A stretch of DNA of 64,000 nt from an uncultured Clostridia bacterium (GCA_948852945.1 CAQPBJ010000007.1:6590-70589), one strand, 5' to 3'. Shown: positions 5,613 through 29,389, numbered from the stretch's first letter. Numbers and translations are program-made. Notes: generated from the sequence alone by a model not told the origin.

Positions 5613-6321
5613 TATGGAAGATATAAAAGATTTTATAAAAAATGAAGCAAGTAAAAATAATATAAATCTTTCAGAAAAAGAAATAGAATTATTTTATTTA
5701 TATATGAATAATTTAATAGAATGGAATCAGAAAATAAATTTAACTGCTATAAAAGAAGAAAAGGAAATTGTAATAAAACATTTTATGGATTCTATTGTAA
5801 TAAAAGATGAAATTGTAGGAAGTAGAGTGCTTGATTTGGGTTCTGGAGCAGGATTCCCAGGAATACCTTTGAAAATAGTTAATGATAAATTAGAAGTAAC
5901 TTTATTAGATGCAGTCAATAAAAAAGTTAATTTTATGAATGATACAATAGAAAAAATTAAATTAAAAAATATTGTAGCAATTCATGCAAGAGCAGAAGAG
6001 TTAGCACATGATGAAAAATATAGAGAAAAATATGATATTGTTGTTTCAAGGGCTGTTTCAAATATGACTACACTTGTGGAATATATGTTACCATTTTTAA
6101 AAAAAGGTGGAAAATGTATATGCTTAAAAGGGCCAGATGTGGATAACGAGTTAGAAGATGCAAAAAATGCAATTAGAATTTTAGGAGGAAAAATAGAGAA
6201 AAAGATGCAGTATGATTTAAATGGTAATGGACGCAGTTTAATAGTGATTTTAAAGGAAAAACACACCGAACAAATATACCCACGAAAACAAGGAAAACCT
6301 ATTAAAGAACCATTAAAATAA
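5602..6321 (+). CDS. rsmG: 16S rRNA (guanine527-N7)-methyltransferase RsmG (GidB)
   Basis: SAM motif [16 protein letters not shown] and synteny after mnmG. The true start may be the ATG at 5614 (MEDIKDF..). Confidence 0.9.
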
Positions 6322-6336
6322 AAATTGAAAAAATAA

Positions 6337-6390
6337 TGTTCCACAGATAACCTGTTGATAACATGTTGATAATCTGTGGATATTTTTTTG
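6337..6390. promoter_or_regulatory. DnaA-box-like cluster overlapping a terminator-like hairpin
   Basis: TGTTGATAA (6353), TGTTGATAA (6364) and TGTGGATAT (6375) are direct repeats at 11-bp spacing, each 8/9 to TGTGGATAA. TGTTCCACA at 6337 is a fourth weaker box. CCACAGAT/ATCTGTGG also form an 8-bp stem followed by a T run. Confidence 0.35.
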
Positions 6391-7348: not shown

Positions 7349-8188
7349 ATGGCTAAAAAGACAGGTTTAGGTAAAGGATTAGATGCACTTTTTTCTACAT
7401 CTATAGTAGAAGAACCACAAGAAAATGAGATGGTTCAGAATTTAAAGATTTCTGAAATAGAACCTAATAGAGATCAACCTAGAAGAATATTTGATGAAAC
7501 ATCATTAAATGAATTAGCAGAATCTATAAAAAATTATGGAGTAATTCAGCCAATAATAGTATCTAAAAAAGATGATTTTTATCAAATTGTAGCTGGAGAA
7601 AGAAGATGGAGAGCTTCTAAAAAGGCTGGTTTAGAAGAAATTCCAGTAATTATCAGAGAAAATGATGATAAGAAAAATAGAGAAATTGCACTTATTGAAA
7701 ATATTCAAAGAGAAGATTTAAACCCTATAGAAAAAGCTAGAGGAATAAAGCTATTAATGGATCAATATAATCTTACTCAAGCTCAGGTAGCAGAAGTGAT
7801 TGGAAAGGGAAGAAGTACAATTACTAATACTTTAAGAATATTAAATTTAGATCCAAGAGTTATTGATTTAGCTTTACAAGGAAAGCTTACAGAAGGTCAT
7901 TGTAAAGCATTATTAGGTTTTGAAAATCAAGATAAGCAATATGATATGGCTCTTTACATGATAGAGTCTGGAGATAGTGTTAGAGAAGCTGAAAAGAAGA
8001 CAAAATCTAGAAAAGCAATGCCTAAAAAGAATGAGAAATATGAACCAATTTATAGAGATATAGAAAGCAGTTTTCAAAGCTTTTTTGGTACAAAAGTAAA
8101 ATTAAATGCTGGTCAAAGAAAAGGAAAAATTATTATAGAATATGCATCAAATGATGATTTAGAGCGCATACTAGAATTGATAAAATAA
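7349..8188 (+). CDS. spo0J: chromosome partitioning protein ParB/Spo0J
   Basis: 279 aa. ParB box IVAGERRWRA, GLGKGLDALF N-terminus, and an HTH LTQAQVAEVIGKGRSTITNTLR. Confidence 0.9.
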   Translation: MAKKTGLGKGLDALFSTSIVEEPQENEMVQNLKISEIEPNRDQPRRIFDETSLNELAESIKNYGVIQPIIVSKKDDFYQIVAGERRWRASKKAGLEEIPVIIRENDDKKNREIALIENIQREDLNPIEKARGIKLLMDQYNLTQAQVAEVIGKGRSTITNTLRILNLDPRVIDLALQGKLTEGHCKALLGFENQDKQYDMALYMIESGDSVREAEKKTKSRKAMPKKNEKYEPIYRDIESSFQSFFGTKVKLNAGQRKGKIIIEYASNDDLERILELIK

Positions 8189-8200
8189 GGAGACATTTTA

Positions 8201-8680
8201 ATGGAAAGTGCTATTTTAATATGTTCAATAGCAGTTAATGTTATATTAACTGCTATTGTATTATTATTTATTTTTAAATTAAAAAAAGTAGAACAACGTT
8301 ATTCTGAATTTATATCTAATTTTAATTCTAATGAAAATATAGAGAATACTTTTAAGGAAATTAAGAAAATGGTAAATAATGTTAATGAAGAAAATAAAAT
8401 TATACATGCTAATTGTAAAAGTCTAGAAAAGCAGTTAAATGAATGCTTCCAGAATATTGGAATTGTTAAATATGATGCTTTTGATGATGTAGGAAGTAAG
8501 TTAAGTTTTGCAATTGCTTTATTAGATAATAAAGATAATGGATTCATTATAAATTCAGTATATGGCAGATCTGCTAGCAACGTATATGCTAAAAGAATAG
8601 AAAATGGAAATTCTACACAAACTTTATCAGAAGAAGAAATAAAAGCTTTAAATAAAGCAAAAGACTTGAAAAAAATATAA
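8201..8680 (+). CDS. DUF4446-family membrane-anchored protein
   Basis: 159 aa. N-terminal TM plus the IGIVKYDAFDDVGSKLSFAIALLD..GFIINSVYGR core. Usual position right after spo0J in Firmicutes. Confidence 0.7.
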   Translation: MESAILICSIAVNVILTAIVLLFIFKLKKVEQRYSEFISNFNSNENIENTFKEIKKMVNNVNEENKIIHANCKSLEKQLNECFQNIGIVKYDAFDDVGSKLSFAIALLDNKDNGFIINSVYGRSASNVYAKRIENGNSTQTLSEEEIKALNKAKDLKKI

Positions 8681-8689
8681 TAAAGTATA

Positions 8690-8718
8690 TTGACATTTAT
8701 AGTTTAATGTGTTAAATT
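8690..8718 (+). promoter_or_regulatory. sigma-A-type promoter for the tRNA-Ser pair
   Basis: TTGACA (8690-8695), 17 bp, TAAATT (8713-8718) with an upstream TGT (extended -10). About 15 nt before the tRNA 5' end. Confidence 0.55.
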
Positions 8719-8733
8719 ATTAATGTTCTTCAC

Positions 8734-8825
<92 letters not shown>

Positions 8826-8864
8826 ATGCTAGATATGAAATACTATCTAGCTTTATAATTATAC

Positions 8865-8956
8865 GGAGATTTACCCAAGTGGCTGAAGGGGACAGTTTGC
8901 TAAACTGTTAGGGTTCGTTTAGGGCCGCGAGGGTTCAAATCCCTCAATCTCCGCCA
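8865..8956 (+). tRNA. tRNA-Ser (anticodon GCU), CCA encoded
   Basis: Acceptor GGAGATT/AATCTCC. Anticodon stem ACAGT/ACTGT with loop TTGCTAA. Long variable arm. T arm GAGGG-TTCAAAT-CCCTC. Confidence 0.9.
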
Positions 8957-8957
8957 A

Positions 8958-8990
8958 CAGATAGTATAATAAAGTACTATCTGTTTTTTT
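8958..8990 (+). terminator. rho-independent terminator after the tRNA pair
   Basis: CAGATAGTA (8958-8966) pairs with TACTATCTG (8975-8983), followed by T7. Confidence 0.7.
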
Positions 8991-9628
8991 ATTTTCGGCA
9001 AATAGAATAAATTTCTAAAATAATTTTTAAAAGCGACGAGAATCTAAAAATATAATAAAAAGATAGATAGTGATGTAACTTTATTAAATAATTATAAAAA
9101 ACGAAATATGGCGATTTTAAAGCTTTAAAAAATGATGAAAAATAGTAAATATTTTATATAAAAAATAAATATAAAAAAGAGGCTTTAAAAAATTAAAAAA
9201 TAGATATTAATTATATAATAAAAAAATATATAATATTTTTGTGTATGAATTGTGGAATAAAAAAATATAAATCAAGAAATAAAATAAATTAAAAAATAAA
9301 AATTAGGAACTGTAAAAAAATAAAAAATATTAAAAAATTTAATGTAACATAAAAAGAGGTTGAAAAATAAGGAAAAAAATGAAATATATTACATAAAAAA
9401 TAAATAAATAAAAATAATTTTAAATATTAAAAAAAATAAATAAAAATAAAAAAATATTAAAAAATAATAAATAATAATAAATAATAATAAATAATTAAAA
9501 AAAATAATTATAATTAATCTAATGTAACAGAATAAATTTAATAATAATATGAAAAATTAGTTTAATGAATTTGAACAATATTTTTTTGAAAGATGATTTT
9601 GTTGTAGTTATAATTAATTAGTTTATGT

Positions 9629-9700
9629 TTGTCAAAATATTATATAAAATTAGCATTAAAAAAAGAAAAAGATATGCATATTGTTGTATCAAATTGACTA
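9629..9700 (+). promoter_or_regulatory. degenerate module copy (P0)
   Basis: TTGTCA at 9629-9634 and GACTAAAAAA at 9696, but the spacing is 65 rather than 45-47. No clear upstream box. Confidence 0.25.
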
Positions 9701-9926
9701 AAAAATAGAAATACTTTTTTGCGGAGTGTAGAATTTAGATTTTGGAGAGAAATTTTCTTAAAAGAGAAGATATGAGTTGAGTAATGTGTTTACAGATATA
9801 CAGAATTTAAAAGTAGTATATGTTCATAAGAACATTTTTTTAAATTTATTAAATTAAAATTATTCAATAAAATAAGAAATATTATAAAAAAAGAATGTTA
9901 ATTATACGCCTATAAATTTTAAAAGC

Positions 9927-10036
9927 TTGATATTAGTGGATTATATGTTTTAAAAGAAAGATAATTATTAAAAATAATTGTCAAAAAAGAAGTTCATGAT
10001 TATATGTATAAATATTTAAAGAGGAAGACAAAAAAT
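9927..10036 (+). promoter_or_regulatory. array module P1 (three-box unit with promoter-like core)
   Basis: TTGATA 9927-9932. Exact TTGTCAAAAAAGAAG 9978-9992, with 17 bp to TATATG at 10001-10006. AGACAAAAAA at 10026. Confidence 0.6.
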
Positions 10037-11079
10037 GAGTTTAAAAATATTAAGGGAGAAGTTTATTTGTAAAAGTCTTTATTTTTAAAAATTAGTAAAG
10101 ATGGACGGAATAATGAGAAAATTAAGATGATTTTAATTTTTAGTAAGATATAGTAGTAAATTAAACATAAGCTAAAAATAAAAAAGTTATGATATGTAAT
10201 AGCTATATTGTCTATTAAGCAACATGAAAAGTAGAGTAAAAAGAAAGCTATTATAATAGATATTAGAGAAAGAAAAGAGCTAAAAAATGAATATAAAATT
10301 TGAAAATGTATTAAAGAATAATTTGATATAAAAAGTTATTGAATTTAAAATATTGAAAAATTTATTAAATATAAAAAATATTGAAAAAAATATAGAAAAA
10401 TATTAAAGCAAATAAAAAAATATTGAAGTAAAAATAAAAAATATTAAAATAAAAAACGATAAAAAAAATAAATATAAAAAATAAATTTAATTTATAGGAA
10501 TATAATTATAAAAATTTTCTATAGATGAATAATATTATAAAAATATTTTTTAAAGAAATATCTATGAAGATAAAAAACTAAAAATAAATCTAGATAAAAT
10601 GAAAAAATTTTTTGAATAAGAAAAAGATTTGTTATTATTTATAAAAATTTAAAAATAAAATGAAGAAAAAACTTGTTTAGAAAATTTTAAGTAAAAATAA
10701 ATATCGGTAATACTTATTATTTATTTTTATTTTTTATTAATATTATAAAATGAAAATAAATGGATAAAAAATATATTCAAAAATATTAAAAAAATATAAT
10801 AATGGAATATAATATTACAAGTTTTCAATTATTATTTTAGAATATGAAAGTATTTTAAAATTAAAACTAACCATGAAAAAAGATGTATAAGGAGTTAATA
10901 AATTTGCAGTTTAATGTAAACATTTTTTTTCATTAAAAATGAGCGGTAATCGATAGAGAATTTTTTAAATTGCGATAGTATTCGTATTTTTTTTTATTTT
11001 ATAAATATATTTTTAGCAAAAATAGTAAAAATGTTCACTAAGTATACATAATACAGTATAATATAAAACTTTAAAAATG

Positions 11080-11189
11080 TTGATATAAAAGGATAGTATG
11101 CAATGCAAATACTTTATAAACAAAAAAGTATTGTCAAAAAAGAAGTATAGAGATATTTAAAAATATTTATTTGTGATAGACAAAAAAAT
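11080..11189 (+). promoter_or_regulatory. array module P2
   Basis: TTGATA 11080-11085. Exact 15-mer 11131-11145, with 17 bp to TATTTA at 11154-11159. AGACAAAAAAA at 11178. Confidence 0.6.
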
Positions 11190-12087
11190 GATATAAATAA
11201 TAACAATTATGATAAAAAAGTAAGTAAGTAATGAAAATGAGTTAACATAAAAGACAAAAAGATGGTAAGGAGCACCTATGATTTTAAAGTATAAAATTTG
11301 TAAGTTGTAATATAAAAAACAATGGAATAATACATAAAAAAGTAGTTTTTTTAAAATAAATTAAAATATTTATTTTTTATTATTAAATATAAAATAAAAG
11401 TAAATAAATTCTAAAAAATATTAAAAATTATTTATATTTTTTAGAAAGGAATGAATAAATAATTTTAAAAATAAGAAAATATAAAAAAATATTATTGTTT
11501 ATTTTAAATAATATTGAAAAAATATTTGAATAGAATCAAATATTTATTAAAAATAGTAGAGTAATTAATTTTTTCGGTAGATTAAAATTAATTATTTATT
11601 GTATAATCATTTTTATTATTTTATCGATTTATTAATATTAACTTTTTTAAAGAAAATTAATAGAAATTTTTTAGGAAGTTGATTGCTAACTTTATAATTA
11701 TCTAAATTAATTATAATTTAGATTTTATTTTCTAATTAATATTAAAAAAATAAAATAAGATCTAAAAAAATAAAGATAAATATTTAAAAAATAAAATTAA
11801 TTATTCAAAAATAAATTAAAAAATTAAGAATACTATTATGGAAATTATAATTATCATCAGGAAATTTATAAAGATAAAGATGAAGTTTAGGCAGCTTATT
11901 ATTACTAATATTTTATAAAAAAGAGAAAAGATCGGAAGATGTTTTTTTATAAAAGTAATGTTTTTAAATTTGAGTTGAAATTTGAATATTATCATTTTTT
12001 ATAAATTATATATCTATTATAGGTAAGTTTTTTTATGTTAACAACATAAAAAATACTGGTATTTTATTATATTATAGCTTAAATATC

Positions 12088-12194
12088 TTGATATAAGCTA
12101 AGTATATCTGATACATTAAAATAAAAAGTAACGGTATTTGTCAAAAAAGAAGGTTGCAAATATAGTGAAAAAATTTAAAAATGAGACAAAAAAA
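12088..12194 (+). promoter_or_regulatory. array module P3
   Basis: TTGATA 12088-12093. Exact 15-mer 12138-12152, with 17 bp to TATAGT at 12161-12166. AGACAAAAAAA at 12184. Confidence 0.6.
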
Positions 12195-12889
12195 GGCTAG
12201 CTTTTGTATAAAATTTTAAGTAAAGATGTTAAGCTAGTTACTTATTAGACAAAGTATGAAGGAAGAGATACGTAGAGATTATATGAATTTTTAAGATACA
12301 AATTGTATAAATAAATAGCAAAGTTTTTATTATATTACTATTAAAACTATACATGAAAAAATATACAAAAAAAGAATTTAAACATTAAAATAATATCAAA
12401 TAATTATTAAAAAATAAAATGAAAATTAGTTATAAATTTTATAATTTATATAAAAAGATGTATAAATAAAATAATTATATAAAAATAAGTAAAAAAGATT
12501 AGAACAAAATATGTATTTATTGTTATTTAAATTCTTTTTTTATTTCGAATATTTAAAATAATAAAAAATACTAATTAATTTATTAGAAATAATAAAAAAA
12601 TCTTAGAAAATTAATAATAACAAACTATTGAATAGTAATGTTTTTTATAGTATGAACTAGTGAAGAAAGATATGACAAATTAGCATAAAACAAATGATGT
12701 TTGTATAGTTTGATACACAGTTTATGACATTTAAATTTGTGATTTTTCTAGTGGATAAATTATGGAAAAATGTGAAGAAATTTAGTAAATTTAATTTTTT
12801 TGAGGTTTATTCTAATAAAAAAACATAATTATGTTAACTATCGAAAAATATTTCCTTCTTTAAAAGTAGGATACTAATTGATGTAATAC

Positions 12890-12999
12890 TTGATAATAGA
12901 GAATTATACATAATATTTAGGTATGAGGTTTTAAAAAACTTTGTCAAAAAAGAAGATTTAAAATATTAAGTAATTATTTTAGGTAGAAGACAAAAAAAC
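12890..12999 (+). promoter_or_regulatory. array module P4
   Basis: TTGATA 12890-12895. Exact 15-mer 12941-12955, with 17 bp to TATTAA at 12964-12969. AGACAAAAAAA at 12988. Confidence 0.6.
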
Positions 13000-13210
13000 A
13001 GGGATTATTAGCATATTTTGTTATTAAAAAATGAAAAAATTAATTTTTAGCTGGCTACAAGACAAAGCCTTAAATGGCTTATTTACGGTTTTTTATAAAA
13101 AAGACATATGATATCATAGCCAAATTATGTATAGAAAAATATATTTCTATACTAAAACTTAGAGATAAATAATGTTTTTTGCATTTAATTATAATGCATT
13201 AAAAAAATAA

Positions 13211-13390
13211 GAAAATTATTAAAAAAATTGGAGATATATAATCATATATTTTTATTTTTTTTGAAAATTAATGAGAAAATCAGAGATATATAATCATATA
13301 TTTCTATTTTTTGAAAATTAATTAGAAAATTAGAGATATATAAATTATATATTTCTATTTTTTTGAAAATTAATTAAAAAATAGAAATAA
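13211..13390. repeat. tandem repeat, ~51 bp x ~3.5, each copy with an imperfect dyad
   Basis: GAAAATTAAT(G/T)AGAAAAT(C/T)AGAGATATATAAT(C/T)ATATATTT(C/T)TATTTTTT repeats head to tail. The internal dyad is AGA(G/A)ATATAT-N4-ATATAT(T/C)TCT. Confidence 0.8.
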
Positions 13391-13864
13391 AAACATATAA
13401 AAATTTATAGTATTTATGAATTTAATTTTTGTATTTCATTAAAAAGTGTAGAATGTTTTATAGAGAATATATAATTTTATGAAATTTAAGTTTATATTAA
13501 TTGGCTGATTAAAAAATTATATATATATAAATATTGAAAGTTGTGTTCAGGTAAAAAAATTTATCTGGATTTTTTTATTATTTAATTATTTTTTTTGATT
13601 TTTTTTATTATTTATTATTTTTTTTTGAATTAATTAATATTTTTTAAATTAATAATAATTTTATTATTAAATCTCAGAAAAAATTATAAAAAATAAATTT
13701 TAAAAAACTGTGGATTGTAACATAAAAAAAATTAAAAAATGTACAAATATTTTATACACAAAACAAATGTTTATAGTGTTTAAAAATAAAATTTAAAAGT
13801 TTGATTTTTAGGATTAAACTGATAAGATTTTTTATAAAAAGTGTTTGAAAAAATGAAAAATTTA

Positions 13865-13985
13865 CTTCTTTTTTTGTCAAAGATATATTTTATTTCGAAT
13901 AAATGAAAAACTACTTTTTAGACAAATAAAAAAATATGTTAAAAATTATTAAATTTTTATTCAGTTGCTATATAGTACTATTTCC
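13865..13985 (-). promoter_or_regulatory. array module M1 (minus strand)
   Basis: Read on the minus strand: GGGAAATA (rc of 13979-13985), 60 bp, TTGTCTAAAAAGTAG (rc of 13911-13925), 45 bp, GACAAAAAAAGAAG (rc of 13865-13878). Confidence 0.5.
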
Positions 13986-14579
13986 CAAGGTTTTCACGAG
14001 TTTGTGTGCAATTTCATATTCTTTTTTTACTATTTTTTGTCTTTTAAAATTTCTTTTTTTGATTTAAGAAAGATAAAAAATTAAAAATGAAAATTAAAAA
14101 AAAGTTGAATAATAAGATTTTGATTATAAATTGTAAAATGAATATTTATTATAAAAACAAAAAAACAGAAAAAGTTGTTAAAAATTTGATTATTATGTAT
14201 TTGAAATTAGGTTACATAAAAAACTTTATATGCTAAAAGATAATAAGAAATTTAAAAAAATTTTTGTAACAATTAATGAAAAATAAATATGAAAAAAATA
14301 AAATTTATTGTTTTTTGCCTTTTTGAATTTTTTTTATTTTTTTATTATTTTTTAATAATTTTAATTAATTATTTTTTGTAATATTCTTGTTTTATTCGAA
14401 TTAATTTATAATATTAAATATATTATATATATTATATTGATAAAAATTAAATAGAGAAATTTAATCGAAAAAATTCTATTTTAATTTTTCTTTTAAGATT
14501 CGTTAATTTTTTTATTGTCTTATATTAGGATAATTTTTTTATAAATTTGCCTCATAAAGATTAAAGAATAGTACATTAT

Positions 14580-14691
14580 TGTCAAAACGTTTACTATTTT
14601 TTTTATAAGTTTTTTATTTTATATTTTAGCAAACATTTTTGAAAGTAAGTTTTAAAAATATAGAATAATATTTGCTGTTCCTTGTATTTCC
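14580..14691 (-). promoter_or_regulatory. array module M2
   Basis: Minus strand: GGAAATA (14685-14691), 59 bp, TTGCTA (14627-14632), 47 bp, GACAA (14580-14583). Confidence 0.45.
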
Positions 14692-15404
14692 TAGACTTTA
14701 AGGAAATGAGAATTTTATGAATGGTAAAAAATAATTTAAAATTTAAGTAAAAAAATATAGAAAATATTTAAAAAATAATTTTGAAATTGATAGTGTTAAA
14801 AAATAAAAAAATTTATCAGTTAAATAAAAAAATTTTTATTTTAGAAGAAATTTTAAAAAATAAAAATTTTAAAAAATAAAATATCTAGTTAATATAAATT
14901 AAATATGAATTAAATATGAAGACTTAATATATTCTATTATAATAATATAAGATTAAGGTGATATTTTTTATATTTAAATCATTAAATAGGGTGTGTAATA
15001 TTAAAAATATTTAGTAAAAAGCCTTTTTTTGACTTCATAGCTAAAAAGCTTATTTACAGACTTTAAAAAATAATTATTGATAAATTTATTTCCTAGTTGT
15101 AGAGGTAGTTTGAAAGAGTTACATTTAGATATATTATGAATGAGTTTTTATTAAATAAAAAAATATGATGAAAAGTATAATAATTCTTAAAAAATAAAAA
15201 ATATTTATTTTGATTTATTATTATTTTTTAAGATTATTTTTTGGAAAAAAAGTTGTAATACAAAAAAATACTGAAATATTTAAAGAATATTAAAAAAATA
15301 TAGAAAAATAAAAATTTTTTTATTTAAGTATTATATTGTGTTTTAGTATGAATTATATGTTGTCTAAACTAAAAAAAGTTCAAGAATTTAGTAAATTAGT
15401 TAAA

Positions 15405-15524
15405 TAGAATAATTGTCTTTGATAAATTAAATTTTAATATATTTGAATGGTTCTTTTTTGACAAATAAATTTTTAAAAAATAGTACTATATTAAATATGT
15501 AAGAATGAATTTTTAAGCATTTCC
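15405..15524 (-). promoter_or_regulatory. array module M3 (best minus-strand promoter-like copy)
   Basis: Minus strand: GGAAATG (15518-15524), 60 bp, TTGTCAAAAAAGAAC (15450-15464), 17 bp, TATATT (15436-15441). AGACAA is 45 bp downstream (15414-15417). Confidence 0.55.
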
Positions 15525-16099
15525 GCATAGTTCAAAGTTTTTAAAATTAAAAAATATATTAAATTAAATAAGTTTTTATTTTTAAATTTATATTTATAAT
15601 AACTATATTTATTATAAAAGAAAGATAAAAAAATAATAAATTTTTATTATTTAAATGAATTTAAATTTGAATAGAGGGGATAGAATTTTAAAATATTAAA
15701 TATAAATTTTAAATTAATGATTAAACAATAACTTTTAATTTTAAATATTTTTTTATTTGACAATATAAAATTTTTATCACTTTTTATAAAATTTGTTAAT
15801 TATACTATTTGAAGTGTAATATTTTTTATTAAAATAGAGTAGTTTTACCAAAAAAAAGAGTATTTTGATGCTAGTTTACAGCTATAAATAGAAAAAAATA
15901 AGAAATATTAATTTTTAATGATTTATGAATGTAATATATAAAGATTTTGTATTTAATATTAATAAATAGATATTAAAAAGGTAGAAAGGTAATTATATAA
16001 ATTAATAAAAAATTTTTGCAATTAAGATTTTTTATTTTGTCTTATTTTAATTTTATAAGAAAGATTTTTGATTTTATTGAGTAAATTTTTATAAAGTTT

Positions 16100-16211
16100 T
16101 GACTTTAAAATAAGTATTAAAAATGTTTTTTTATATATTTTCTTTTTTACAAAGATTTTTTTTAGATAGAATTAATATAAAGATATGATACGAGCTAATA
16201 TGCTTTATTCC
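16100..16211 (-). promoter_or_regulatory. array module M4
   Basis: Minus strand: GGAATAA (16205-16211), 59 bp, TTGTAAAAAAGAAAATATATAAAAA (from 16152 downward), 47 bp, GTCAAAA (16100-16103). Confidence 0.45.
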
Positions 16212-17496
16212 TATGTTTTTTAGATTTACTTATGAAAAATAAAATGGATAATTTACAATTTTGGTCATAAAATTTTTATAAAAAAATGTGAATTTTATAA
16301 AATTAAAAATTTATATTATATTATTGAATTTATTATTTAGGTTAAAAAAATTTTTTGAAATTAGTATTGGTTTGAAAATTTTAAAAAAGTTATTGATTAA
16401 AAAGAAAAAAGTTTTTATTTAAAGACTAATATTTTAAAAAATGAATAAATGGATACTGAGATATCTAACAGATTAATATATTAATTTTTTTTGTAATTTG
16501 ATATCTTAAAAATTGAATAAAAATTGTATGTGAAATTTTATGACTATTAATTTTTAAAAATATATTTTTTCTGTAAGCCTTGAAAGGAGCAGTTTTTAAT
16601 TTTTGACGTTTTTTTATTTGATAATTTGTATACATAAAATATTAGGGATTATTTTTTAATATTTATTTATATATTTTTTTAGAAGGAAAAATAGGTATTA
16701 CTTTTGTAATTTAATATATTTTTTTATAATAATTAAGGTATTATGTGATTGTATTTTTTTAAGATTATATATTATATAAGTGATAATTTATGAAAATTAC
16801 TTTGTCATTAAATAATTTATTTTATTATTATTTTTACTTATTGGTTAAATATTAGATAGTAATTAGTGATAAAAGATATGTTTTCTGTCATATTGTATAA
16901 AAAGTTAATGCTGGAAGTCCTTGATTTATAAGGAACGTATCAATTACAACAAAAAATGTGATAAATAAACTAAAATATTTTAACATATTTTCAATTATTT
17001 TATATTTATTATAATATTTGAATTAGCATTTTATTATTATATATATTATTTTTAAATATTTATTTATTAAAAAATATAATAATAGAGATAAAATATATAA
17101 AGAGAGGATAGCAAAATTGAATGTTAGAAAGTGTAATAAAAGGACTTAATATATATTAATAATATTTTATAGACTTATTTTTAATATAAATATAGCAGTT
17201 AATGAACTACTTGATACTCTAAGGATATAAATTTTTACTTAATTAATTTTAAAAATATATGTAATAAAAAGAATTTAATTAATTTATTAATGATTTTTTT
17301 TAAGAATATCTGTTTGTATATTTTTATATTTAAATTGTAATGTAAATGCTTTTTATTATTAATGATTCTTATTGATATAATAGAAGTCTATTTTTTATTA
17401 ATCATAAACTTAAAATATACTATATTTTATTTTGTCATAGTTTTAATTTTATGCATATATAAATGAAAATATCAAAAAAAATCTTAATTTTCTAAT

Positions 17497-17607
17497 TGTC
17501 ATTTAAAAATAGATTTTTTTGAAGTAATGAAAATACTTTTTTGGCAAAGAAATTCAAAAAGAAGATATAAAAATTAAATATGTAATTTCTATATACTATG
17601 TATTTCC
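17497..17607 (-). promoter_or_regulatory. array module M5
   Basis: Minus strand: TCGATACAACTTAGGAAATA (17601-17620), 60 bp, TTGCCAAAAAAGTAT (from 17547), 45 bp, GACAA (17497-17500). Confidence 0.5.
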
Positions 17608-18181
17608 TAAGTTGTATCGATTTTTATTTTTTAAAAAAATATTTAAATTTAATATTTTAATATTTTTATTTTTGGGTTTTTATGTACTCTAAGTGATGTA
17701 TTTTGATATCGAAATTAATGAAATCTTTCTTTTAGAGTCAAAATTTTTTTTAAGAAAAGTACCTTAAAACTAAAAGACTAAAAAATTGTGTAAAGTTTTT
17801 AATTTTGTTATAACTTTTTTTGCTTATTAAGAAAAGTTATTATTTTTACCGTATATTATTATAAAAATAGAACAGACGTGGAAAGCAGAGAATAGACTGT
17901 AATATATAAGGGGTTTTTTTGATCTTTTATATTTTTTAATATTTTTTAAAATTAAAATTAATTTTTTTAATTTATTTAAATACAAAAAAATTAAAAAAGT
18001 GGGAAATTATTTGTAATAATTGAGTTTTTTAGGTATAAAAGAAGTGATAGTTTTTATTGATTAAAAAAATAAAATCTTATAAGAGTAGATTAATAATATA
18101 AATATTTTTTAAAAGTATTGTCAATGATTATTTTTTTTAGAGAAAAAAATTATTTCTTAAAAGAAATAATTTTAAGTATTT

Positions 18182-18293
18182 TGTCAAATTATTATTCATT
18201 ATTTATATATTTTTATATATTTTCTTTTTTACAATTAATTTTTTATAGAGTATTTAGAAAAATATATTAATATCTTGTAATTCCTTTATATCC
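18182..18293 (-). promoter_or_regulatory. array module M6
   Basis: Minus strand: GGATATA (18287-18293), 59 bp, TTGTAAAAAAGAAAATATATAAAAA (from 18234, same subfamily as M4), 47 bp, GACAA (18182-18185). Confidence 0.45.
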
Positions 18294-18927
18294 TATGTTT
18301 TGTTGATTTAAATTAAAATAGAAATCATAAAAAAATATCAAATTTAGAACAAAAAATTCTATTTATTTAGTAGTGAGATAAATTAAGATAAAAATTATTT
18401 TTTTTATAAAAATTTGAATCTTGAGACTTAAAAATATATTTTTTTATGTTTTTAAAGATGATATTTATGAAAAAAATTTAAAGTTGCTAAAAAAGAAGAG
18501 TATAAATAAATAAATTCTTAAATATTAAAGTTAGAAGTATAAAAATAATAGTTATTTTATTGAGGTAATATTGTGTCAAATAAAATTAAGATTATTTTAA
18601 AAAATAATTTGAAAGCAATGTGCTTGAAATGCATGATACTGTAAGAGTTTGATTTTTCTACTATTTTATTTGAAATAAATTTATATTTTTTAATATTTAT
18701 TTTAAAAACAGATGTTTTGAAAGAATGATTAAAAATTATTAATATTTTGTAAAGAGTTATTTTGAAGTTTTATGGTCGAATTTATACTAGTAAGTGAATT
18801 ATTATTATAAATTTACTAATAAGATAAATAATTATTAAAAATTAAAAAATTAATGTTTTTAGATTGTCTTTTATAATTAAGGTTTTAATTATAATTGAAA
18901 ATATTTAAAAAGCTTAATTTTACAAGT

Positions 18928-19038
18928 TGTCTTTTTTTGGAGCATTTTTTTAAAGAACAATTATTACTTTTTTGCCAAATAAATATTTTAAGTCTAATAT
19001 ATGCAGATATATTAGATTTACTAAAAATCAGTATTTCC
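18928..19038 (-). promoter_or_regulatory. array module M7
   Basis: Minus strand: GGGAAATA (19032-19038), 60 bp, TTGGCAAAAAAGTAA (from 18978), 45 bp, AGACAA (18928-18931). Confidence 0.5.
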
Positions 19039-19633
19039 CTTGGTTTTAGAGAATTGTTTTTTTAAAATATTATTAATATTTTGATTATTTTAAATTTTTT
19101 TATTTGGATATTGATTTTGATAGAAAATACTTTTTATATTAGATTTTTTTATTATAATAGTGTAGAGGCAATTTAATATACGATATAAATATTTTAGAAA
19201 ACATATTGACTAAAAAAAATATAAAAATTTTAATAGGAATAAAAAAATTATTTGACAATTTTTAAAATAATTTAAATTGGCTTTATGTTGCTTTGAATTG
19301 ATGAATTTAGAATAAAAATTTTAATTTTTGGTGATTATTTTTATAAGGGCTTTATTATATGTAATATAATATGTTAGAAATGATTTTTTCTGATTTTTTT
19401 TAATTTTTAATTAATTTAATTAATTAAATTATATTTTTTATATATTTATTTTAATTTTTTTTATTAAATAATTAGATAAATTCATGTAATAATATATTTT
19501 TGCTTTTTAATGTATATATTCTTTTGAATAGATGATCTAAAAATAAATTATTAATTTGAGAAATTATTTTTGTCAGTATTTAATTTAGTATAAAAAAATT
19601 TTGACCGTTTATTTTGAGTTTTAAACGGTTTTT

Positions 19634-19760
19634 TGTCATTAGGTTGAGTAGTTTTATTATTAATTTTTTTTTTGGAATTTTTGCAACTAATTTTAAAAAT
19701 GAAAAAAGTGGTTAATAAATAAAACGGGATTTCACTGGTGTTTCCCATGTTATATCGATT
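19634..19760 (-). promoter_or_regulatory. array module M8
   Basis: Minus strand: TCGATATAACATGGGAAACA (19739-19760), 59 bp, TTGCAA (19681-19686), 47 bp, GACAAAAAA (19634-19637). Confidence 0.4.
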
Positions 19761-20078
19761 TCGGAAAAATCACAAATTACTGAAAATGTTTTTTAGACTT
19801 AAAATTTTTTGATTTTATTTAGTGAAAAATAATTAAAAAAATTTTAAAAAAATAATTTAAAATAGTGTGTATAAAAAAATAAATAATTAGAAATTTTATA
19901 TTTATAAGAACAATGAATATATTTAATTTTTAAATTGATTTAAAAATTAGAGCAATAGACAATATTTAAATATTTATTTATTATTTTTTTTATACAAATT
20001 TTATAAAAAATCACAATAATGTCTGTAATACTAATTTGTATATATTTTTTTAATATTTTAATAAAATATATAATAAAT

Positions 20079-20113
20079 AAAAAAATAAAGTGAATATGTT
20101 GATTATTCACTTT
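20079..20113 (-). terminator. terminator downstream of the activase-fusion gene
   Basis: AAAGTGAATA (20087-20096) pairs with TATTCACTTT (20104-20113). The A run at 20079-20085 gives a U tract on the minus strand. Confidence 0.55.
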
Positions 20114-20142: not shown

Positions 20143-23100
20143 TTATTTTTTATTATTTTTTTGTTCGGTTTTTAAGTTGTCTTTTGCAACTGTCATTAAT
20201 AATTTTAATCTATTTGTTTGGTTTGATTCACTTGCTCCAGGATCATAATCTACTGGTGTTATATTAGCATTTGGATAAGTTTCTCTAATTGTTTTTATTA
20301 CACCTTTACCAACTATATGATTTGGAAGACAAGCAAATGGTTGAACGCAAACGATGTTTGGAATATTATGTTCTATATATTCTACCATTTCAGCAGTTAA
20401 GAACCAGCCTTCACCAGTTTGATTTCCTATAGATAATATATCTTTTACTTTATTTTCTAAGTGCCAGATATCACAAGGAGGAAGATAGTTTTTCTTTGAA
20501 TTTGATAGTGCAATTTTTAAATCTTTTTCGAAAATATCTATTAACTTGATGGCTACTTTAAAAATTGCAGCTTTTGTTTTATCTATTTTTAATAGTTTAT
20601 TGAATGTTATTTTATGTGTAGCTATAAATTTTATAAATCCCATAAAATCTGGTAATACTACTTCTGCGCCTTCTTTTTCTAAAACATTTGCTACAAAGTT
20701 ATTTCCAAAAGGATGATATTTTATTAATACTTCTCCAACTATACCAACTTTAGGCTTTTCAATATTATTATTTATTTCTATTTTTTCAAAATCTTCAACT
20801 ATATCGTAAATGCTTTGTTTAAATTGTTTACTATTAGATTTTTCAACTAACTTTTTACATTTTTCAAGCCATTCATTATATAGTTTTTCAGTTTCACCTT
20901 TATTTATTTCATATGCTCGATTTTTCATTAATAATTTTTGTAGTAGGTCACCATAAGTGACGCTTTTTAATAGTCTTTCTGCTAGGCCAAGTGTAATTTT
21001 GAATCCAGACATTTTTTCCATACCAACTACATTGAATGATATAACAGGTACTTGAGAAAATCCAGCATCTTTTAGAGCTTTTCTTATAAAACCTATATAA
21101 TTTGTGGCTCTACATCCACCACCTGTTTGAGACATTATTAATGCAGTTTTGTTAGGATCATACTTTCCAGATTCTAAGGCTTCTATCATTTGCCCAGTAG
21201 TTAAAATAGATGGATAACAAGCATCATTATTTACATATTTCAATCCTGTTTCAACTGTATTTGGTGTACATTCTCTTAATAATTCTACATTGTATCCACA
21301 AGATTTAACTGCTGTTTCTATTAATTCAAAGTGGATTGGAGCCATTTGAGGAATTAAAATAGTATAATCCTTTTTCATTTCTTTAGTAAATTCTATAGGA
21401 TGAAGTTCATAATCTCCTACGGATTTACATTCCTCACAGTTTTGTCTTTCTGACTTTTCCTTAATTTTTTTGTTCATACTAGCTAATAATGAACGTATAC
21501 GTATTCTAACAGCACCTAAGTTATTAACTTCATCAATTTTAATTAATGTGTACATGTTATCATAACTTTTTAATATTTCTTCTACTTGATCTGTTGTTAC
21601 TGCGTCTACACCACAGCCAAAAGAATTTAACTGTATTAGTTCTAAGTTATCGTGTTGACCTGTAAATTCTGCAGCTGCATATAGTCTTGCATGATATACC
21701 CATTGGTCTACGACTCTAATTGGTCTTTTAGCTTCAGTTTTTTTAGAAATACTGTCTTCAGAAAGTACACATAAGCCTAAGCTTGTTATTAATGTGTCGA
21801 TGCCATGATTTACTTCTGGATCTACATGATATGGTCTACCAGCAAGTACAATGCCGCGTAGGTCATTTTTATTCATATAGTCTAATATTTCTTGACCTTT
21901 TTTATCTACATCGTTTTTAAAGTTTTGGTATTCTTCTTCAGCTTTTTTAGCAGCTTCTAATAGTTCCTTTTTTGTAAAATTATATTCTTTAAATTCATCA
22001 CGCTCTAAAATGACCTGTACTAGATTTTTTGCCTCGAAAGGTAAAAATGTATTGATGAACTTAATATTTTCGGATTTTAGGCCTTCTACGTTGTTTTTAA
22101 GTACTTCTGAATATGATATTACTATTGGACAGTTATAATGATTGTTTGCTTTTTGATATTCTTTTCTTGAATATGGTATACAAGGATAGAATATTGTTTT
22201 AATGCCTTGTTCAAGTAAGTTCATTATGTGTCCATGACTTAATTTAGCTGGGTAACATACAGATTCAGATGGCATTGATTCCATTCCTTTTTCATAGGTT
22301 TTTCTAGTACTTTTTTCTGAAAGAATAACTCTAAATCCTAAGTTCGTTAGGAAAGTGAACCAGAATGGATAATCCTCATACATATTTAAAACTCTAGGAA
22401 TACCTATTGTTCCACGATATGCTTTTTCTTCTGCTAGAGGTTCATAGCCAAATAATCTTTCAAATTTATATTTGTATATATTTGGTAGATTCTTAGCCTC
22501 TGTAATTCCGCCACTTCCTTTTTCACAGCGATTTCCAGATATAAAAGATTTATTATCATTGAATTTATTTATAGTTAGAAGACAATTGTTTTCACATTTT
22601 CCACAACGTACTTGAGTTGTTTTAATATTCAAATTGTTTAATTCTTCTGTTTTAAGCAATGTTGAAGTGTATTCCATATCTAAGTTTGCTTCAAATTGTT
22701 CTTTAGAAAGTAAGGCAACTCCATAGGCACCCATTAATCCAGAGATAGATGGTCTTATTACATTTTGTCCTACTAGAAGTTCAAAGCTTCTTAAAACTGC
22801 ATCATTGTAGAAAGTTCCACCTTGTACAACTATATGTTTTCCAAGTGTTTTCATATCGCGGACTTTCATAACTTTTTGAATAGCATTTTTTACTACGGAG
22901 AAGGAAAGTCCAGCTGAAATATCTCCAACACTATAACCTTCTTTTTGAGCTTGTTTAATTTTAGAATTCATAAAAACTGTACATCTTGAACCTAAGTCTA
23001 CAGGCGCTTTTGATTCAATTGCTGCTTTAACGAATTCTTCTATAGATAGGCCTAAACTTTTTGCGAAAGTTTCAATAAAAGAACCACATCCAGAAGAGCA

Positions 23101-24432
23101 GGCTTCATTTAGCATAATGTTATCTATAACATCCTCTTTCATTTTTATGTATTTCATGTCTTGACCACCAATATCAATGATACTAGTGACATTTGGCATA
23201 AATTCTTTTGCAGCAGTGTAGTGAGCGATTGTTTCTATTTCATTTAAATCAACATTTAGAGCTGTTTGAATTAACTTTTCGCCATAGCCTGTTACACCTG
23301 CAAATCTTATGTTAGCTGTATTAGGTAGTTTTTCATACATTATTTTTAGCATATTTATTACGCTATTTAATGGATTACCTTCGTTGCTTTTATAGTCTGA
23401 ATAAAGTAAATTTTTTTCATTATCTATTAATACTAGTTTGGTTGTTGTTGAACCTGCGTCTATTCCAACGAAACAGTCTCCGTTATAATTTTCTAATGGT
23501 TTTGTTTTAATTTTTGCTTTATTATGTCTTTTTTTAAATTTTTCATATTCTTCTTCTGTAGCAAAAAGTGGGCTTAATGGTTTAGTAGTGGTATCTTTTG
23601 CTACTTTTAGATCTTTAATTTTTTGTTTTAATTCTGAATTTGAAAATTCAGATGAATTTAAAGAATCTAGTGCTGCTCCTTTTGCTACTAAAAGGTGTGC
23701 ATTTTCTGGAATAAGTATTTCATCGTCTTTTAATTCTAACGTTTCTATAAAACGTTTTCTAAGTTCTGGAAGATAACTTAGTGGTCCGCCAAGAAAAGCT
23801 ACTTTTCCTCTGATTGGTCTACCACATGCTAATCCGCTTATTGTTTGATTAACAACTGCTTGAAAAATTGATGCTGCTATATCTTCTTTTCTAGAACCTT
23901 CATTTAATAGAGGTTGTACGTCAGTTTTTGCAAAAACACCACATCTTGATGCAATAGGGTAGATTACTTTATAACTTTTGGCAAGTTCGTTAAGTCCAGC
24001 TGTATCTGTATTTAAAAGAGATGCCATTTGGTCCAAAAATGCACCAGTTCCACCAGCACAAGTTCCATTCATTCTTTGTTCTATAAATTTATCAAAATAT
24101 ATAATTTTAGCGTCTTCACCGCCTAATTCGATAACTATATCAGTTTTAGGTAAATATTTTTCGACAGCACGTTTGCAAGATATAACTTCTTGAATAAAAG
24201 GTATTTTTAAAAAATTTGCTGCAGACATAGCCCCTGAACCAGTAAGTGCCATAGTATATGTAGCTTTAGGGTAATCTTTAGATAATTGCTCTAAAACATT
24301 ACATATTGTATTTTTGGTATCTGAAAAATGTCTTGTGTAATTTGTATATATTGTTTCTTGTTTATCGTTCATTACAACAATTTTTACTGTTGTTGATCCT
24401 ACATCTAATCCTACATGTAATAATTCTGACAT
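20143..24432 (-). CDS. acyl-CoA dehydratase activase-related giant fusion (two BadF/BcrA/HgdC-type ATPase modules plus DUF2229-type C-terminal domains)
   Basis: 1429 aa. Two acetate/sugar-kinase-like starts, GLDVGSTTVKIV and GIDAGSTTTKLV, each with an IGGQD-type motif. Cys-rich linker and a long dehydratase-component-like C-terminus. Confidence 0.8.
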   Translation of the reverse strand: MSELLHVGLDVGSTTVKIVVMNDKQETIYTNYTRHFSDTKNTICNVLEQLSKDYPKATYTMALTGSGAMSAANFLKIPFIQEVISCKRAVEKYLPKTDIVIELGGEDAKIIYFDKFIEQRMNGTCAGGTGAFLDQMASLLNTDTAGLNELAKSYKVIYPIASRCGVFAKTDVQPLLNEGSRKEDIAASIFQAVVNQTISGLACGRPIRGKVAFLGGPLSYLPELRKRFIETLELKDDEILIPENAHLLVAKGAALDSLNSSEFSNSELKQKIKDLKVAKDTTTKPLSPLFATEEEYEKFKKRHNKAKIKTKPLENYNGDCFVGIDAGSTTTKLVLIDNEKNLLYSDYKSNEGNPLNSVINMLKIMYEKLPNTANIRFAGVTGYGEKLIQTALNVDLNEIETIAHYTAAKEFMPNVTSIIDIGGQDMKYIKMKEDVIDNIMLNEACSSGCGSFIETFAKSLGLSIEEFVKAAIESKAPVDLGSRCTVFMNSKIKQAQKEGYSVGDISAGLSFSVVKNAIQKVMKVRDMKTLGKHIVVQGGTFYNDAVLRSFELLVGQNVIRPSISGLMGAYGVALLSKEQFEANLDMEYTSTLLKTEELNNLNIKTTQVRCGKCENNCLLTINKFNDNKSFISGNRCEKGSGGITEAKNLPNIYKYKFERLFGYEPLAEEKAYRGTIGIPRVLNMYEDYPFWFTFLTNLGFRVILSEKSTRKTYEKGMESMPSESVCYPAKLSHGHIMNLLEQGIKTIFYPCIPYSRKEYQKANNHYNCPIVISYSEVLKNNVEGLKSENIKFINTFLPFEAKNLVQVILERDEFKEYNFTKKELLEAAKKAEEEYQNFKNDVDKKGQEILDYMNKNDLRGIVLAGRPYHVDPEVNHGIDTLITSLGLCVLSEDSISKKTEAKRPIRVVDQWVYHARLYAAAEFTGQHDNLELIQLNSFGCGVDAVTTDQVEEILKSYDNMYTLIKIDEVNNLGAVRIRIRSLLASMNKKIKEKSERQNCEECKSVGDYELHPIEFTKEMKKDYTILIPQMAPIHFELIETAVKSCGYNVELLRECTPNTVETGLKYVNNDACYPSILTTGQMIEALESGKYDPNKTALIMSQTGGGCRATNYIGFIRKALKDAGFSQVPVISFNVVGMEKMSGFKITLGLAERLLKSVTYGDLLQKLLMKNRAYEINKGETEKLYNEWLEKCKKLVEKSNSKQFKQSIYDIVEDFEKIEINNNIEKPKVGIVGEVLIKYHPFGNNFVANVLEKEGAEVVLPDFMGFIKFIATHKITFNKLLKIDKTKAAIFKVAIKLIDIFEKDLKIALSNSKKNYLPPCDIWHLENKVKDILSIGNQTGEGWFLTAEMVEYIEHNIPNIVCVQPFACLPNHIVGKGVIKTIRETYPNANITPVDYDPGASESNQTNRLKLLMTVAKDNLKTEQKNNKK

Positions 24433-28585: not shown

Positions 28586-29377
28586 CTATATTTTTATTAA
28601 TTTACTTGGAAAATCTCTTGAAGCAACGCTTACTGAAATATCTTTTGAATTGATATTATTATTTTTAAGTTCATCAGTTACCGTTTTTAAGGCTAATTCA
28701 GGAAAGTTATTTTCTTTACTTAAGTGCCCTAACATTGCATGTTTTAAGCCATATTTTGAGGCTAATTCAGTTATTGTTTTACCAGAAGATTCATTTGACA
28801 AATGACCTATAGGACTAAGAATACGTTGTTTTAGTTGAAATGGATATCTACTGTATTTTAAGATATCTGGATCATAATTTGCTTCTAGTAATATGAAAGA
28901 AGAATCTTTTAATTTTGAAATTAAGGTATTATCCATGTGACCAATATCAGTTGCAATGCTAATTTTCTTATCATCGTGGAAAATATTAAATCCACATGGG
29001 TTGGCAGCATCATGAGGAATGCTAAATGGAAGAATTTCTAAATCTTTTATTTTAAATTTTTTATTTATTGTAAAGATGTTTTGATTACTATCATCAATTT
29101 TTGCTTTTTGAGCTTGCATATTATTTAGAGTCTCTAAATTGCAATATATTGGGGTATTATATTTTTTTGATATACTTCCGATATTTCTAACATGATCAGA
29201 GTGTTCGTGAGTTACTAAAATTGCATCAATATCGCTAAGTGCAACATTAAAAGACGCAAGAGCAGTCTCGATTTTTTTTTGACTTACTCCTGCATCTACT
29301 AATATTTTTGTTTCATTTGTTTCTACAAATAAACAATTTCCTGTGCTTCCACTATATAAACTACAAAAATTAAACAT
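28586..29377 (-). CDS. MBL-fold metallo-hydrolase (YycJ/WalJ-like)
   Basis: 263 aa with the HEHSDH zinc motif. N-terminus FCSLYSGSTGNC is typical of YycJ-like proteins. Confidence 0.8.
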   Translation of the reverse strand: MFNFCSLYSGSTGNCLFVETNETKILVDAGVSQKKIETALASFNVALSDIDAILVTHEHSDHVRNIGSISKKYNTPIYCNLETLNNMQAQKAKIDDSNQNIFTINKKFKIKDLEILPFSIPHDAANPCGFNIFHDDKKISIATDIGHMDNTLISKLKDSSFILLEANYDPDILKYSRYPFQLKQRILSPIGHLSNESSGKTITELASKYGLKHAMLGHLSKENNFPELALKTVTDELKNNNINSKDISVSVASRDFPSKLIKI

Positions 29378-29389
29378 CTTTTTTCTCCA

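Follow-up and report, generated by a model that had tools for sequence, protein, structure and literature searches.

A gene-free, satellite-like array beside parAB in an uncultured Clostridia bacterium retains short candidate recognition boxes

Why does a bacterium keep 11 kb of DNA without a credible gene beside its chromosome segregation genes? The question is posed by a stretch of 64,000 nucleotides (nt) from an uncultured Clostridia bacterium (GCA_948852945.1, CAQPBJ010000007.1:6590-70589; hereafter the window, in whose coordinates positions are given unless another locus is named), in which positions 8991-20078 form a gene-free, AT-rich array of 11,088 bp directly downstream of parA-parB-DUF4446. 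Streamlined bacterial genomes are expected to delete useless DNA, yet this clade of gut Clostridia keeps up to 11 kb gene-free beside parAB and the replication origin (oriC). If the chromosome is as large as the related complete genome OZ006973.1 (~1.8 Mb), the array is estimated to make up ~0.6% of it. Our answer has two parts of unequal strength. We consider it highly probable that these 11 kb are a satellite-like array, old and syntenic, made up of kilobase-sized non-coding units in which short sequence boxes and their layout are under constraint. More tentatively, and with less than even confidence, the boxes may be protein-recognition sites that make up a bank of promoters and operators. 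Read as a single statement, that of an old, lineage-specific satellite-like array whose boxes are selected candidate promoter or protein-recognition modules, the explanation has in our judgement an even chance of being right.

The composition of the block sets it apart from its surroundings. A first-pass annotation of the window had described it as free of credible open reading frames (ORFs), more AT-rich than the genes and not random filler, and our measurements agree on each point. The longest ORF spans 65 amino acids (aa; 19551-19748) and the runner-up 59 aa, and the longest stop-free run (90 codons) equals that of same-composition shuffles (81 ± 12). The bases are distributed as A 44.7, T 40.9, G 10.1 and C 4.3%; measured per kilobase, the G+C content (GC) is 13-17% in the block versus 24-32% in the flanking genes, and the remaining intergenic DNA of the window, whose largest gaps are 445, 358, 319 and 311 bp, averages 22% (range 8-35%). 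As for non-randomness, TTGTCAAAAAAGAAG is present exactly four times in the block, and the only informative motifs that rise above shuffled sequence (15-47 fold) are TTGTCAAAAAAG and AGACAAAAAA, which mark two boxes termed B1 and B2.

Both boxes are parts of a directional module of about 200 nt, in which a U-box, B1, a -10-like TAT, B2 and a further box, B3, follow each other at fixed spacing. With B1 (TTTGTCAAAAAAG, including a -35-like TTGTCA) set at position 0, the U-box (CTTGRKAWAT-AG...TATA) lies at -70 to -48, B2 (AGACAAAAAA, a motif present twice in the module) at +46/47 and B3 (AGACAAA) at about +118-121, while the TAT stands 17 nt past the TTGTCA of B1. The combination TTGTCA-17-TAT(A/T)xx is found in most of the clear module copies, the A and T of the -10 element being conserved at 90% or more. 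Copies were located by means of a profile hidden Markov model (HMM; nhmmer, with expectation values E); modules 1-4 and 6 are the clear copies, and module 5 lay outside the training set. The modules and the repeats between them are as follows.

9903-10111, + strand: module 1 (U-box, B1 at 9977-9992, -10-like TAT, B2 at 10025); nhmmer E 2e-19 as a training copy, with the exact 15-mer
11057-11271, + strand: module 2 (B1 at 11130-11145, B2 at 11177, B3 at 11251); profile HMM and motif matches
12063-12265, + strand: module 3 (B1 at 12137-12152, B2 at 12183); profile HMM, with TTGTCA-17-TATAGT
12870-13071, + strand: module 4 (B1 at 12940-12955, B2 at 12987, B3 at ~13056); orthologue of positions 16462-16671 in the sister species L012, 83% identical over 68 nt
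13819-13994, - strand: module 5, diverged (TTTGTCTAAAAAGTAG ... TTGACAAAAAAAG); nhmmer E 4.8e-5, positional orthologue of L012 18507-18718
15333-15538, - strand: module 6 (B1 TTTGTCAAAAAAGAAC at 15465-15450, degenerate B2); profile HMM, inside the collinear segment 14248-16160
17497-17611, - strand: marginal module remnant (TTTGCCAAAAAAGTAT, upstream CTTAGGAAATACATAGTATATAG); nhmmer E 0.35, pattern match at three mismatches
13211-13400, no strand assigned: 51-bp tandem repeat of ~3.5 copies with an internal palindrome of 45-nt arms (inverted pair 13299-13343/13345-13389)
9200-9550, + strand: near-pure A/T, A-strand-biased spacer of 7-12% GC, given as an example; others lie at ~10300-10800, 11300-11830 and 12300-12600

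The first-pass annotation had counted at least 12 module copies, a number that the profile does not bear out: it returns five clear copies (four on the + strand and one on the - strand), one significant copy (E 5e-5, rounded) and one marginal copy, that is, 6-7 modules, with similar remnants, judged by eye, at about 16150, 18232 and 18978. The diverged units of the window can be recognised from modules that stand 803-1153 bp apart. The accompanying picture of a diverged composite module separated by A/T spacers was right in that both module and spacers exist; their regular alternation, however, is clear only in the first 4.5 kb, where islands (15-24% GC) and spacers (7-12% GC) succeed one another every ~1 kb (200-bp profile), and it becomes less regular in the latter 6.6 kb. 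The A-rich strand tracks module orientation, and both orientation and AT skew flip near the 51-bp palindromic repeat. The low-complexity A/T spacers cross-match the spacers of every related block. The same kind of A-rich, low-complexity sequence fills the 311-bp gap between jag and mnmE (2017-2327; 7.7% GC), which cross-matches the blocks of the related loci L012, L021, L023 and L024 in BLAST searches.

Constraint on the boxes became apparent on comparison with the sister species L012 (ParB 97% and genes 84-93% identical to those of the window), whose array was assembled from L012 and the conspecific metagenome contigs L099 and L108, the latter two reaching the activase gene that borders the block on the right. 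The syntenic sister array, seen in the three assemblies, measures 11,127 bp versus 11,088 bp in the window. The two species agree at 66% of 556 four-fold degenerate sites, and their arrays, aligned globally, reach 44% identity versus 45% for a reversed control, which together place most of the array at neutral saturation; over its first 280 bp the block is 67-71% identical. B1 and B2 are the only k-mers enriched in both species. The order of modules and the layout of + copies followed by - copies are likewise common to both, the sister array having five clear + copies spaced 944-1174 bp, one weak copy and then two - copies. Two collinear segments rose above the noise ceiling when the local search was run at low stringency (9013-9689 with 21-731 and 14248-16160 with 7376-9259 of the sister), and they identify the - modules as positional orthologues. 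Across the B1 plus B2 family, the consensus differs between the species at 1/27 positions versus ~9 expected neutrally (binomial p about 2e-4, calculated by hand), arguing for purifying selection on the boxes. The block is conserved in sister strains and species, and although neutral sites have reached saturation since the two species separated, its boxes, module order and orientation have been kept.

The same comparisons show that slippage, short patches of gene conversion and the gain or loss of units reshape the array, and that most of its positions drift neutrally. The four bases directly after an A6 run are GAAG in every + copy of the window and GTAG in every + copy of L012; the - copies deviate from this, which points to conversion among copies of the same orientation. 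L012 and L099 differ by a 24-bp spacer indel, with no change in unit number, and by six single-nucleotide polymorphisms (SNPs) within 40 bp of one module (L012 20135-20173), the two assemblies being otherwise 99.5% identical; indel and SNP cluster suggest footprints of slippage and gene conversion, and the cluster is probably a patch converted from another unit. Unit number was unchanged in the two conspecific pairs compared, and the sister species differ by ±2 units. Relative to the window, the sister array has ~2.1 kb more to the left of the shared - modules and ~2.05 kb less to their right; the agreement in total length to within 39 bp could be a coincidence, the product of internal rearrangement or a sign of length homeostasis.

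At the scale of the clade, 80 related loci were compared. In the interval from spo0J and tRNA-Ser to the activase gene, a gene-free, A-rich block recurs in the same spacer of relatives whose ParB is 97-65% identical to that of the window, and its length ranges from 0.13 kb to 11.1 kb: 133 bp in L074 and 334 bp in L055, where the array is absent, 1.4-2.9 kb in L029, L073 and L050, 4.6-4.9 kb in L033, L038 and L054, 6.9 kb in L024, and 11.1 kb in the window and L012. On the + strand, A accounts for 52-65% of the related blocks, whose GC is 5-15%, and in four of them tandem units are explicit, measuring 886-953 bp at 78-99% identity in L024, ~1267 bp at 77-87% in L023, 823-1033 bp at 65-85% in L021 and 450-925 bp in L054; the L021 unit consists of a 7-nt microsatellite spacer and a 450-nt island with long conserved boxes. 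Units are more alike within a species than between species. Alternate copies of the 886-953 bp units at L024 14815-18100 are 99% identical (15052 versus 16906; 14815/15768/16669), which marks a very recent higher-order duplication within a block of 5% GC. A box resembling TGGGAAATA, seen by eye in the islands of L024, L054 and L023, was considered as a clade-wide element and dropped, being enriched only ~2-fold and dominated by the L024 repeats. When metagenomes were scanned for the B1-B2 pattern, 29 of 31 loci proved to be chance matches in coding DNA, the true arrays being those of L099 and L108. Further stretches of ~1 kb below 18% GC occur elsewhere within 10 kb of parB in distant relatives (L043 18351-19400, L047 17501-18550, L088 19251-20550, L090 13851-15050 and 16701-17900, L067 10851-12750), so that AT-rich, gene-poor stretches may be a genome-wide habit of the clade.

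Much of this behaviour would also be expected of a purely neutral or selfish satellite, grown by slippage and unequal crossing-over in a harmless convergent spacer, the boxes of which persist by descent and short-tract conversion. The variation in length and the absence of the array from some relatives, the species-specific units, the footprints of conversion and slippage and the plasticity of a site that accepts varied cargo all fit such an origin. So does the base composition: four-fold sites have 7.6% GC and more G than C on the leading strand, and GC skew is positive throughout the window, so that the constant positive skew of the block is the replication-strand skew of neutral DNA; the spacers and the blocks of L024, L033, L038 and L054 lie at the neutral GC floor. 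A precedent exists in the expansion and contraction of intergenic tandem repeats in Ehrlichia ruminantium (PMC10710844). Four observations argue in the other direction. Concerted neutral evolution predicts the nine or so consensus changes of which only one was seen, and orthologous modules have kept their order and orientation. The GC of the window block (14.4%) is about twice the neutral floor owing to its islands, at odds with neutral composition. Finally, bacterial deletion bias is expected to remove useless DNA and should have eroded 11 kb of it in a genome of ~1.8 Mb, yet 11,088 and 11,127 bp persist in the two species. On balance, we regard a neutral satellite as somewhat unlikely.

Under the favoured explanation, that of a satellite-like array with selected boxes, non-coding units of ~0.8-1.2 kb would have expanded in the spacer that separates the terminator behind tRNA-Ser(GCT) from that of the convergent activase gene, each unit comprising an A-rich, microsatellite-like spacer and an island. 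The boxes would be recognised by protein, in the simplest form as sigma-A-type promoters with flanking operator-like sites, which would make the array a bank of repeated promoter/operator modules. Such modules would serve either to start A-rich transcripts without structure or to titrate, that is hold, or dock a DNA-binding protein beside the origin, with the spacers as tolerated filler that grows and shrinks. B1, B2 and the U-box were also held by eye against binding sites known from other systems (the Spo0A box, SpoIIID site, CtsR box, Xer/dif, RTP Ter and Noc half-site); their defining spacing or core bases did not fit, and none is claimed. Several results weigh against the favoured explanation. 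Pairs of sigma-70-like hexamers are no more frequent in the block (147) than in shuffles (148.5), internal terminators were not found in the block, and several of the - strand copies are degenerate. Differences between conspecific assemblies are not depleted in modules (6/14 events versus 2.7 expected). The B1/B2 family is found only in the window and L012, the islands of other species being different, so that any trans-acting partner would need to co-evolve fast; and relatives with a spacer of 133-334 bp manage without the array, which is therefore not essential at the level of the clade.

A promoter-like core followed by a conserved box (at +12) and an A-rich strand that follows module orientation could mark one structured non-coding RNA gene, small or large, per unit, and the first-pass annotation had proposed a family of non-coding transcripts. 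Of that proposal the conserved -35/-10-like core stands, and the expected RNA features were not found. Rfam and ARAGORN detected no rRNA, tRNA or other family in the block, their matches being confined to the tRNA-Ser pair on its left flank; loosening the Rfam threshold from the gathering score to E<=5 added nothing credible, and Rfam likewise matched nothing in eight related loci. RNAalifold predicted 0 pairs on 10 modules, single-sequence folds of the modules were equal to shuffles (z -2.5 to +0.8), terminators are lacking, and the sequence downstream of B3 is not conserved. The islands of L021 have a slight folding advantage over column shuffles (z -2.3 and -4.4), with a negligible covariation term of -0.2 to -0.75 kcal/mol. 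Structured RNA genes thus appear very unlikely. Nor does the block contain a clustered regularly interspaced short palindromic repeat (CRISPR) array, as the first-pass annotation had also observed for CRISPR, rRNA and tRNA alike: a repeat search and self-BLAST found no near-identical repeats of 24-48 bp at a period of 55-80 bp, the sole short-period repeat being the 3.5-copy palindromic repeat of 51 bp at 13211-13400.

The boundaries of the block raise the possibility of an integrated element. The annotated ends are strong, convergent terminators, which the earlier description had called good, and the flanking features are the following (dG, folding free energy).

8734-8825 and 8865-8956, + strand: tRNA-Ser pair (TGA and GCT, respectively), left flank; found by ARAGORN and Rfam, 100% identical in the sister species L012
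8956-8985, + strand: intrinsic terminator that closes the tRNA operon and marks the left edge of the array; 12-bp stem and T-run, dG -14.3 kcal/mol, z -7.6
20079-20113, - strand: terminator that serves the activase gene and marks the right edge of the array; 16-bp stem and T7, dG -14.2, z -7.0
20143-24432, - strand: activase gene (1429 aa, BcrAD_BadFG/DUF2229), right flank; convergent with the tRNA operon

The same activase gene borders the block in L024, L029, L033, L038, L050, L054 and L073. A tRNA-Ser gene is a classic integration site, and the spacer is a hot spot for cargo in relatives, where it holds patatin-like genes (L044 6018-6722, L051 7207-8091; identities by eye from the translation) and, also identified by eye, an IS200-type Y1 transposase (L013 11775-12251), a sigma-factor-like gene (L050 11852-12673) and a zinc-ribbon membrane protein (L021 11539-11949). 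The block could on this view consist of decayed genes or of the decayed remains of an element integrated at tRNA-Ser. Open frames in the block are, however, no longer than in shuffles; no decayed frames, conserved micro-ORFs or traces of the relatives' cargo proteins were found, the longest frames have no Pfam match, the block has no matches to phages or plasmids, and a duplicated, att-like tRNA 3' end was not found in it. In none of the 80 loci did array units match an intact gene or mobile element. Amplification, and not decay, is indicated by the tandem units and their microsatellite spacers, and we consider this origin highly unlikely.

An array of this kind might also be an artefact of assembly, a chimera or a mis-joined low-complexity region, particularly as most short-read contigs stop at the tRNA genes; among the contigs shown that encode an identical DUF4446 protein, 8/10 end within or just past the first tRNA-Ser (8758-8826). 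Both junctions are, however, supported in other assemblies. A second, independent NCBI assembly (GCA_949482225.1, contig CASYFK010000019.1; L011) is collinear with window positions 33007-10144 at 99.9% identity, thereby spanning the right junction together with 10 kb of block, with four differences over 9.9 kb of block, among them no unit indel and only a 1-bp indel, and 18 differences over 12.9 kb of flank. The left junction is crossed by contigs L004 (reaching 9508) and L006 (reaching 9101), a circular HiFi chromosome (L024) has a syntenic block, and the sister array is present in three samples. The block is real and stable within the species, and an artefact is almost certainly not the explanation. 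Of the 18 flank differences to L011, 11 fall within ~850 bp (29297-30140), a clustering that suggests a recombination tract. The breakage of short-read contigs at the tRNA genes explains why the array is rarely seen in metagenome-assembled genomes; in practical terms, it is missing from most assemblies of the clade.

The position of the array invites an explanation in terms of chromosome organisation. Gene order near the origin is dnaA / rpmH-rnpA-yidD-yidC-jag-mnmE-mnmG-rsmG-parA-parB-DUF4446, with dnaA ~10 kb upstream of DUF4446 in L001, from which it follows that the block starts ~10 kb from the replication origin, as the first-pass annotation had surmised in placing it close to oriC. A cluster of sites on the - strand at 6146-6383, in the rsmG-soj spacer and the end of rsmG, looks like a DnaA-box cluster upstream of soj, with a perfect TTATCCACA at 6146 and TTATCAACA, TTATCAACA and ATATCCACA at 6361, 6372 and 6383, spaced exactly 11 nt. 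In the array itself, DnaA boxes (TTATCCACA-like) are not enriched as they would be in a datA-, DARS- or DBC-like cluster, with three one-mismatch boxes in 11 kb versus 31 in 64 kb.

Modules next to parA-parB-DUF4446 and ~10 kb from dnaA could be where a ParB-like or nucleoid protein loads or anchors, making the array a centromere-like or organiser element that positions the origin, for instance during sporulation, on a deformable platform of spacers; genes for sporulation (SpoIIR, Germane) are present in the organism. Boxes at fixed spacing combined with fast, species-specific turnover resemble centromere repeats that evolve together with their binding proteins. Moreover, the 16-bp parS palindrome TGTTNCACGTGNAACA has 0 matches at <=3 mismatches across the 64-kb window, and few canonical sites exist in 1.26 Mb of related loci. 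Yet canonical parS is equally rare in relatives without the array, and was for this reason discarded as a discriminator between relatives with and without it; the boxes are not palindromic, parS-like sites; A-tracts show no helical phasing or curvature, with no consistent 10-11 bp peak in any block; some relatives lack the array; and the position could merely reflect a permissive spacer. We therefore judge a centromere-like element decidedly improbable. The chromosome-organisation array suggested by the first-pass annotation survives in its short conserved boxes and fixed spacing, and not in parS sites, DnaA-box enrichment or helical phasing. A canonical parS (TGTTTCACGTGAAACA) is found within two mismatches in only 8/92 origin-proximal sequences of the clade (1.26 Mb); it may be that ParB binds another sequence in this clade or that parS is situated at a greater distance. 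A wider form of the idea, in which the array would be an origin-proximal, satellite-like organiser (a regional centromere) whose boxes co-evolve with a lineage-specific DNA-binding or RNA-polymerase-associated protein and which positions, insulates or times the origin, is in our view improbable.

What the array means depends on which of these explanations holds. DNA that evolves in a satellite-like manner, yet keeps a few boxes constant, is unusual in bacteria. Should the boxes bind protein or fire transcripts, the locus would offer a tractable system for repeat/protein co-evolution and the organisation of the origin domain; should they do nothing, it would be a rare, clean case of satellite DNA persisting in a prokaryote; and a demonstrated role in segregation or organisation would make it a categorically new element. 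The first-pass annotation could assign the block to no described element class, and we concur: the sequence tests for known RNA genes, structured RNA arrays, CRISPR, parS and DnaA-box clusters and decayed elements were negative, and our literature search found no description of such an array.

Among known systems, the partition sites offer one comparison. Chromosomal parS, the 43-bp repeats of F sopC, the iterons of R1 parC and the RacA ram sites of B. subtilis measure 7-43 bp, either adjoin one another or are scattered, and are for the most part palindromes. The array shares with them repeated, here putatively protein-binding, boxes clustered near the origin or partition genes, and differs in that asymmetric boxes are spread over a directional module of 200 nt, lie ~1 kb apart and include no parS-like sequence. 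With the promoter islands of E. coli, which are not organised in tandem units and are linked to horizontally acquired genes, it has in common many promoter-like signals in AT-rich, ORF-poor DNA; here, in contrast, the units are tandem. Sets of small RNAs such as Qrr and LhrC have conserved RNA structures and terminators; like them, the array combines several tandem copies of a promoter-like core with a short non-coding region, but it lacks conserved RNA structure and terminators.

The nearest bacterial precedent is the intergenic tandem-repeat expansion of Ehrlichia ruminantium, in which tandem repeats expand and contract in long intergenic regions (PMC10710844). Both are small, AT-rich genomes that tolerate kilobases of growing and shrinking non-coding repeats, arranged head to tail, explicitly so in L024, L023, L021 and L054 and in diverged form in the window. 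Unlike in E. ruminantium, the repeats occupy one fixed locus of up to 11 kb with ~1 kb units of island and spacer, are syntenic across many species, consist of old, diverged units in which only short boxes are kept, and showed no change in unit number between conspecific assemblies (two pairs). In the way it evolves, the array most resembles eukaryotic satellite DNA, and AT-rich regional centromeres offer a further comparison. It differs from them in belonging to a bacterium with ParAB, in having 5-12 units and not hundreds, and in being absent from some relatives. As in those systems, units are homogenised within a species and diverge fast between species around short conserved boxes, and the array adjoins the segregation genes of the chromosome.

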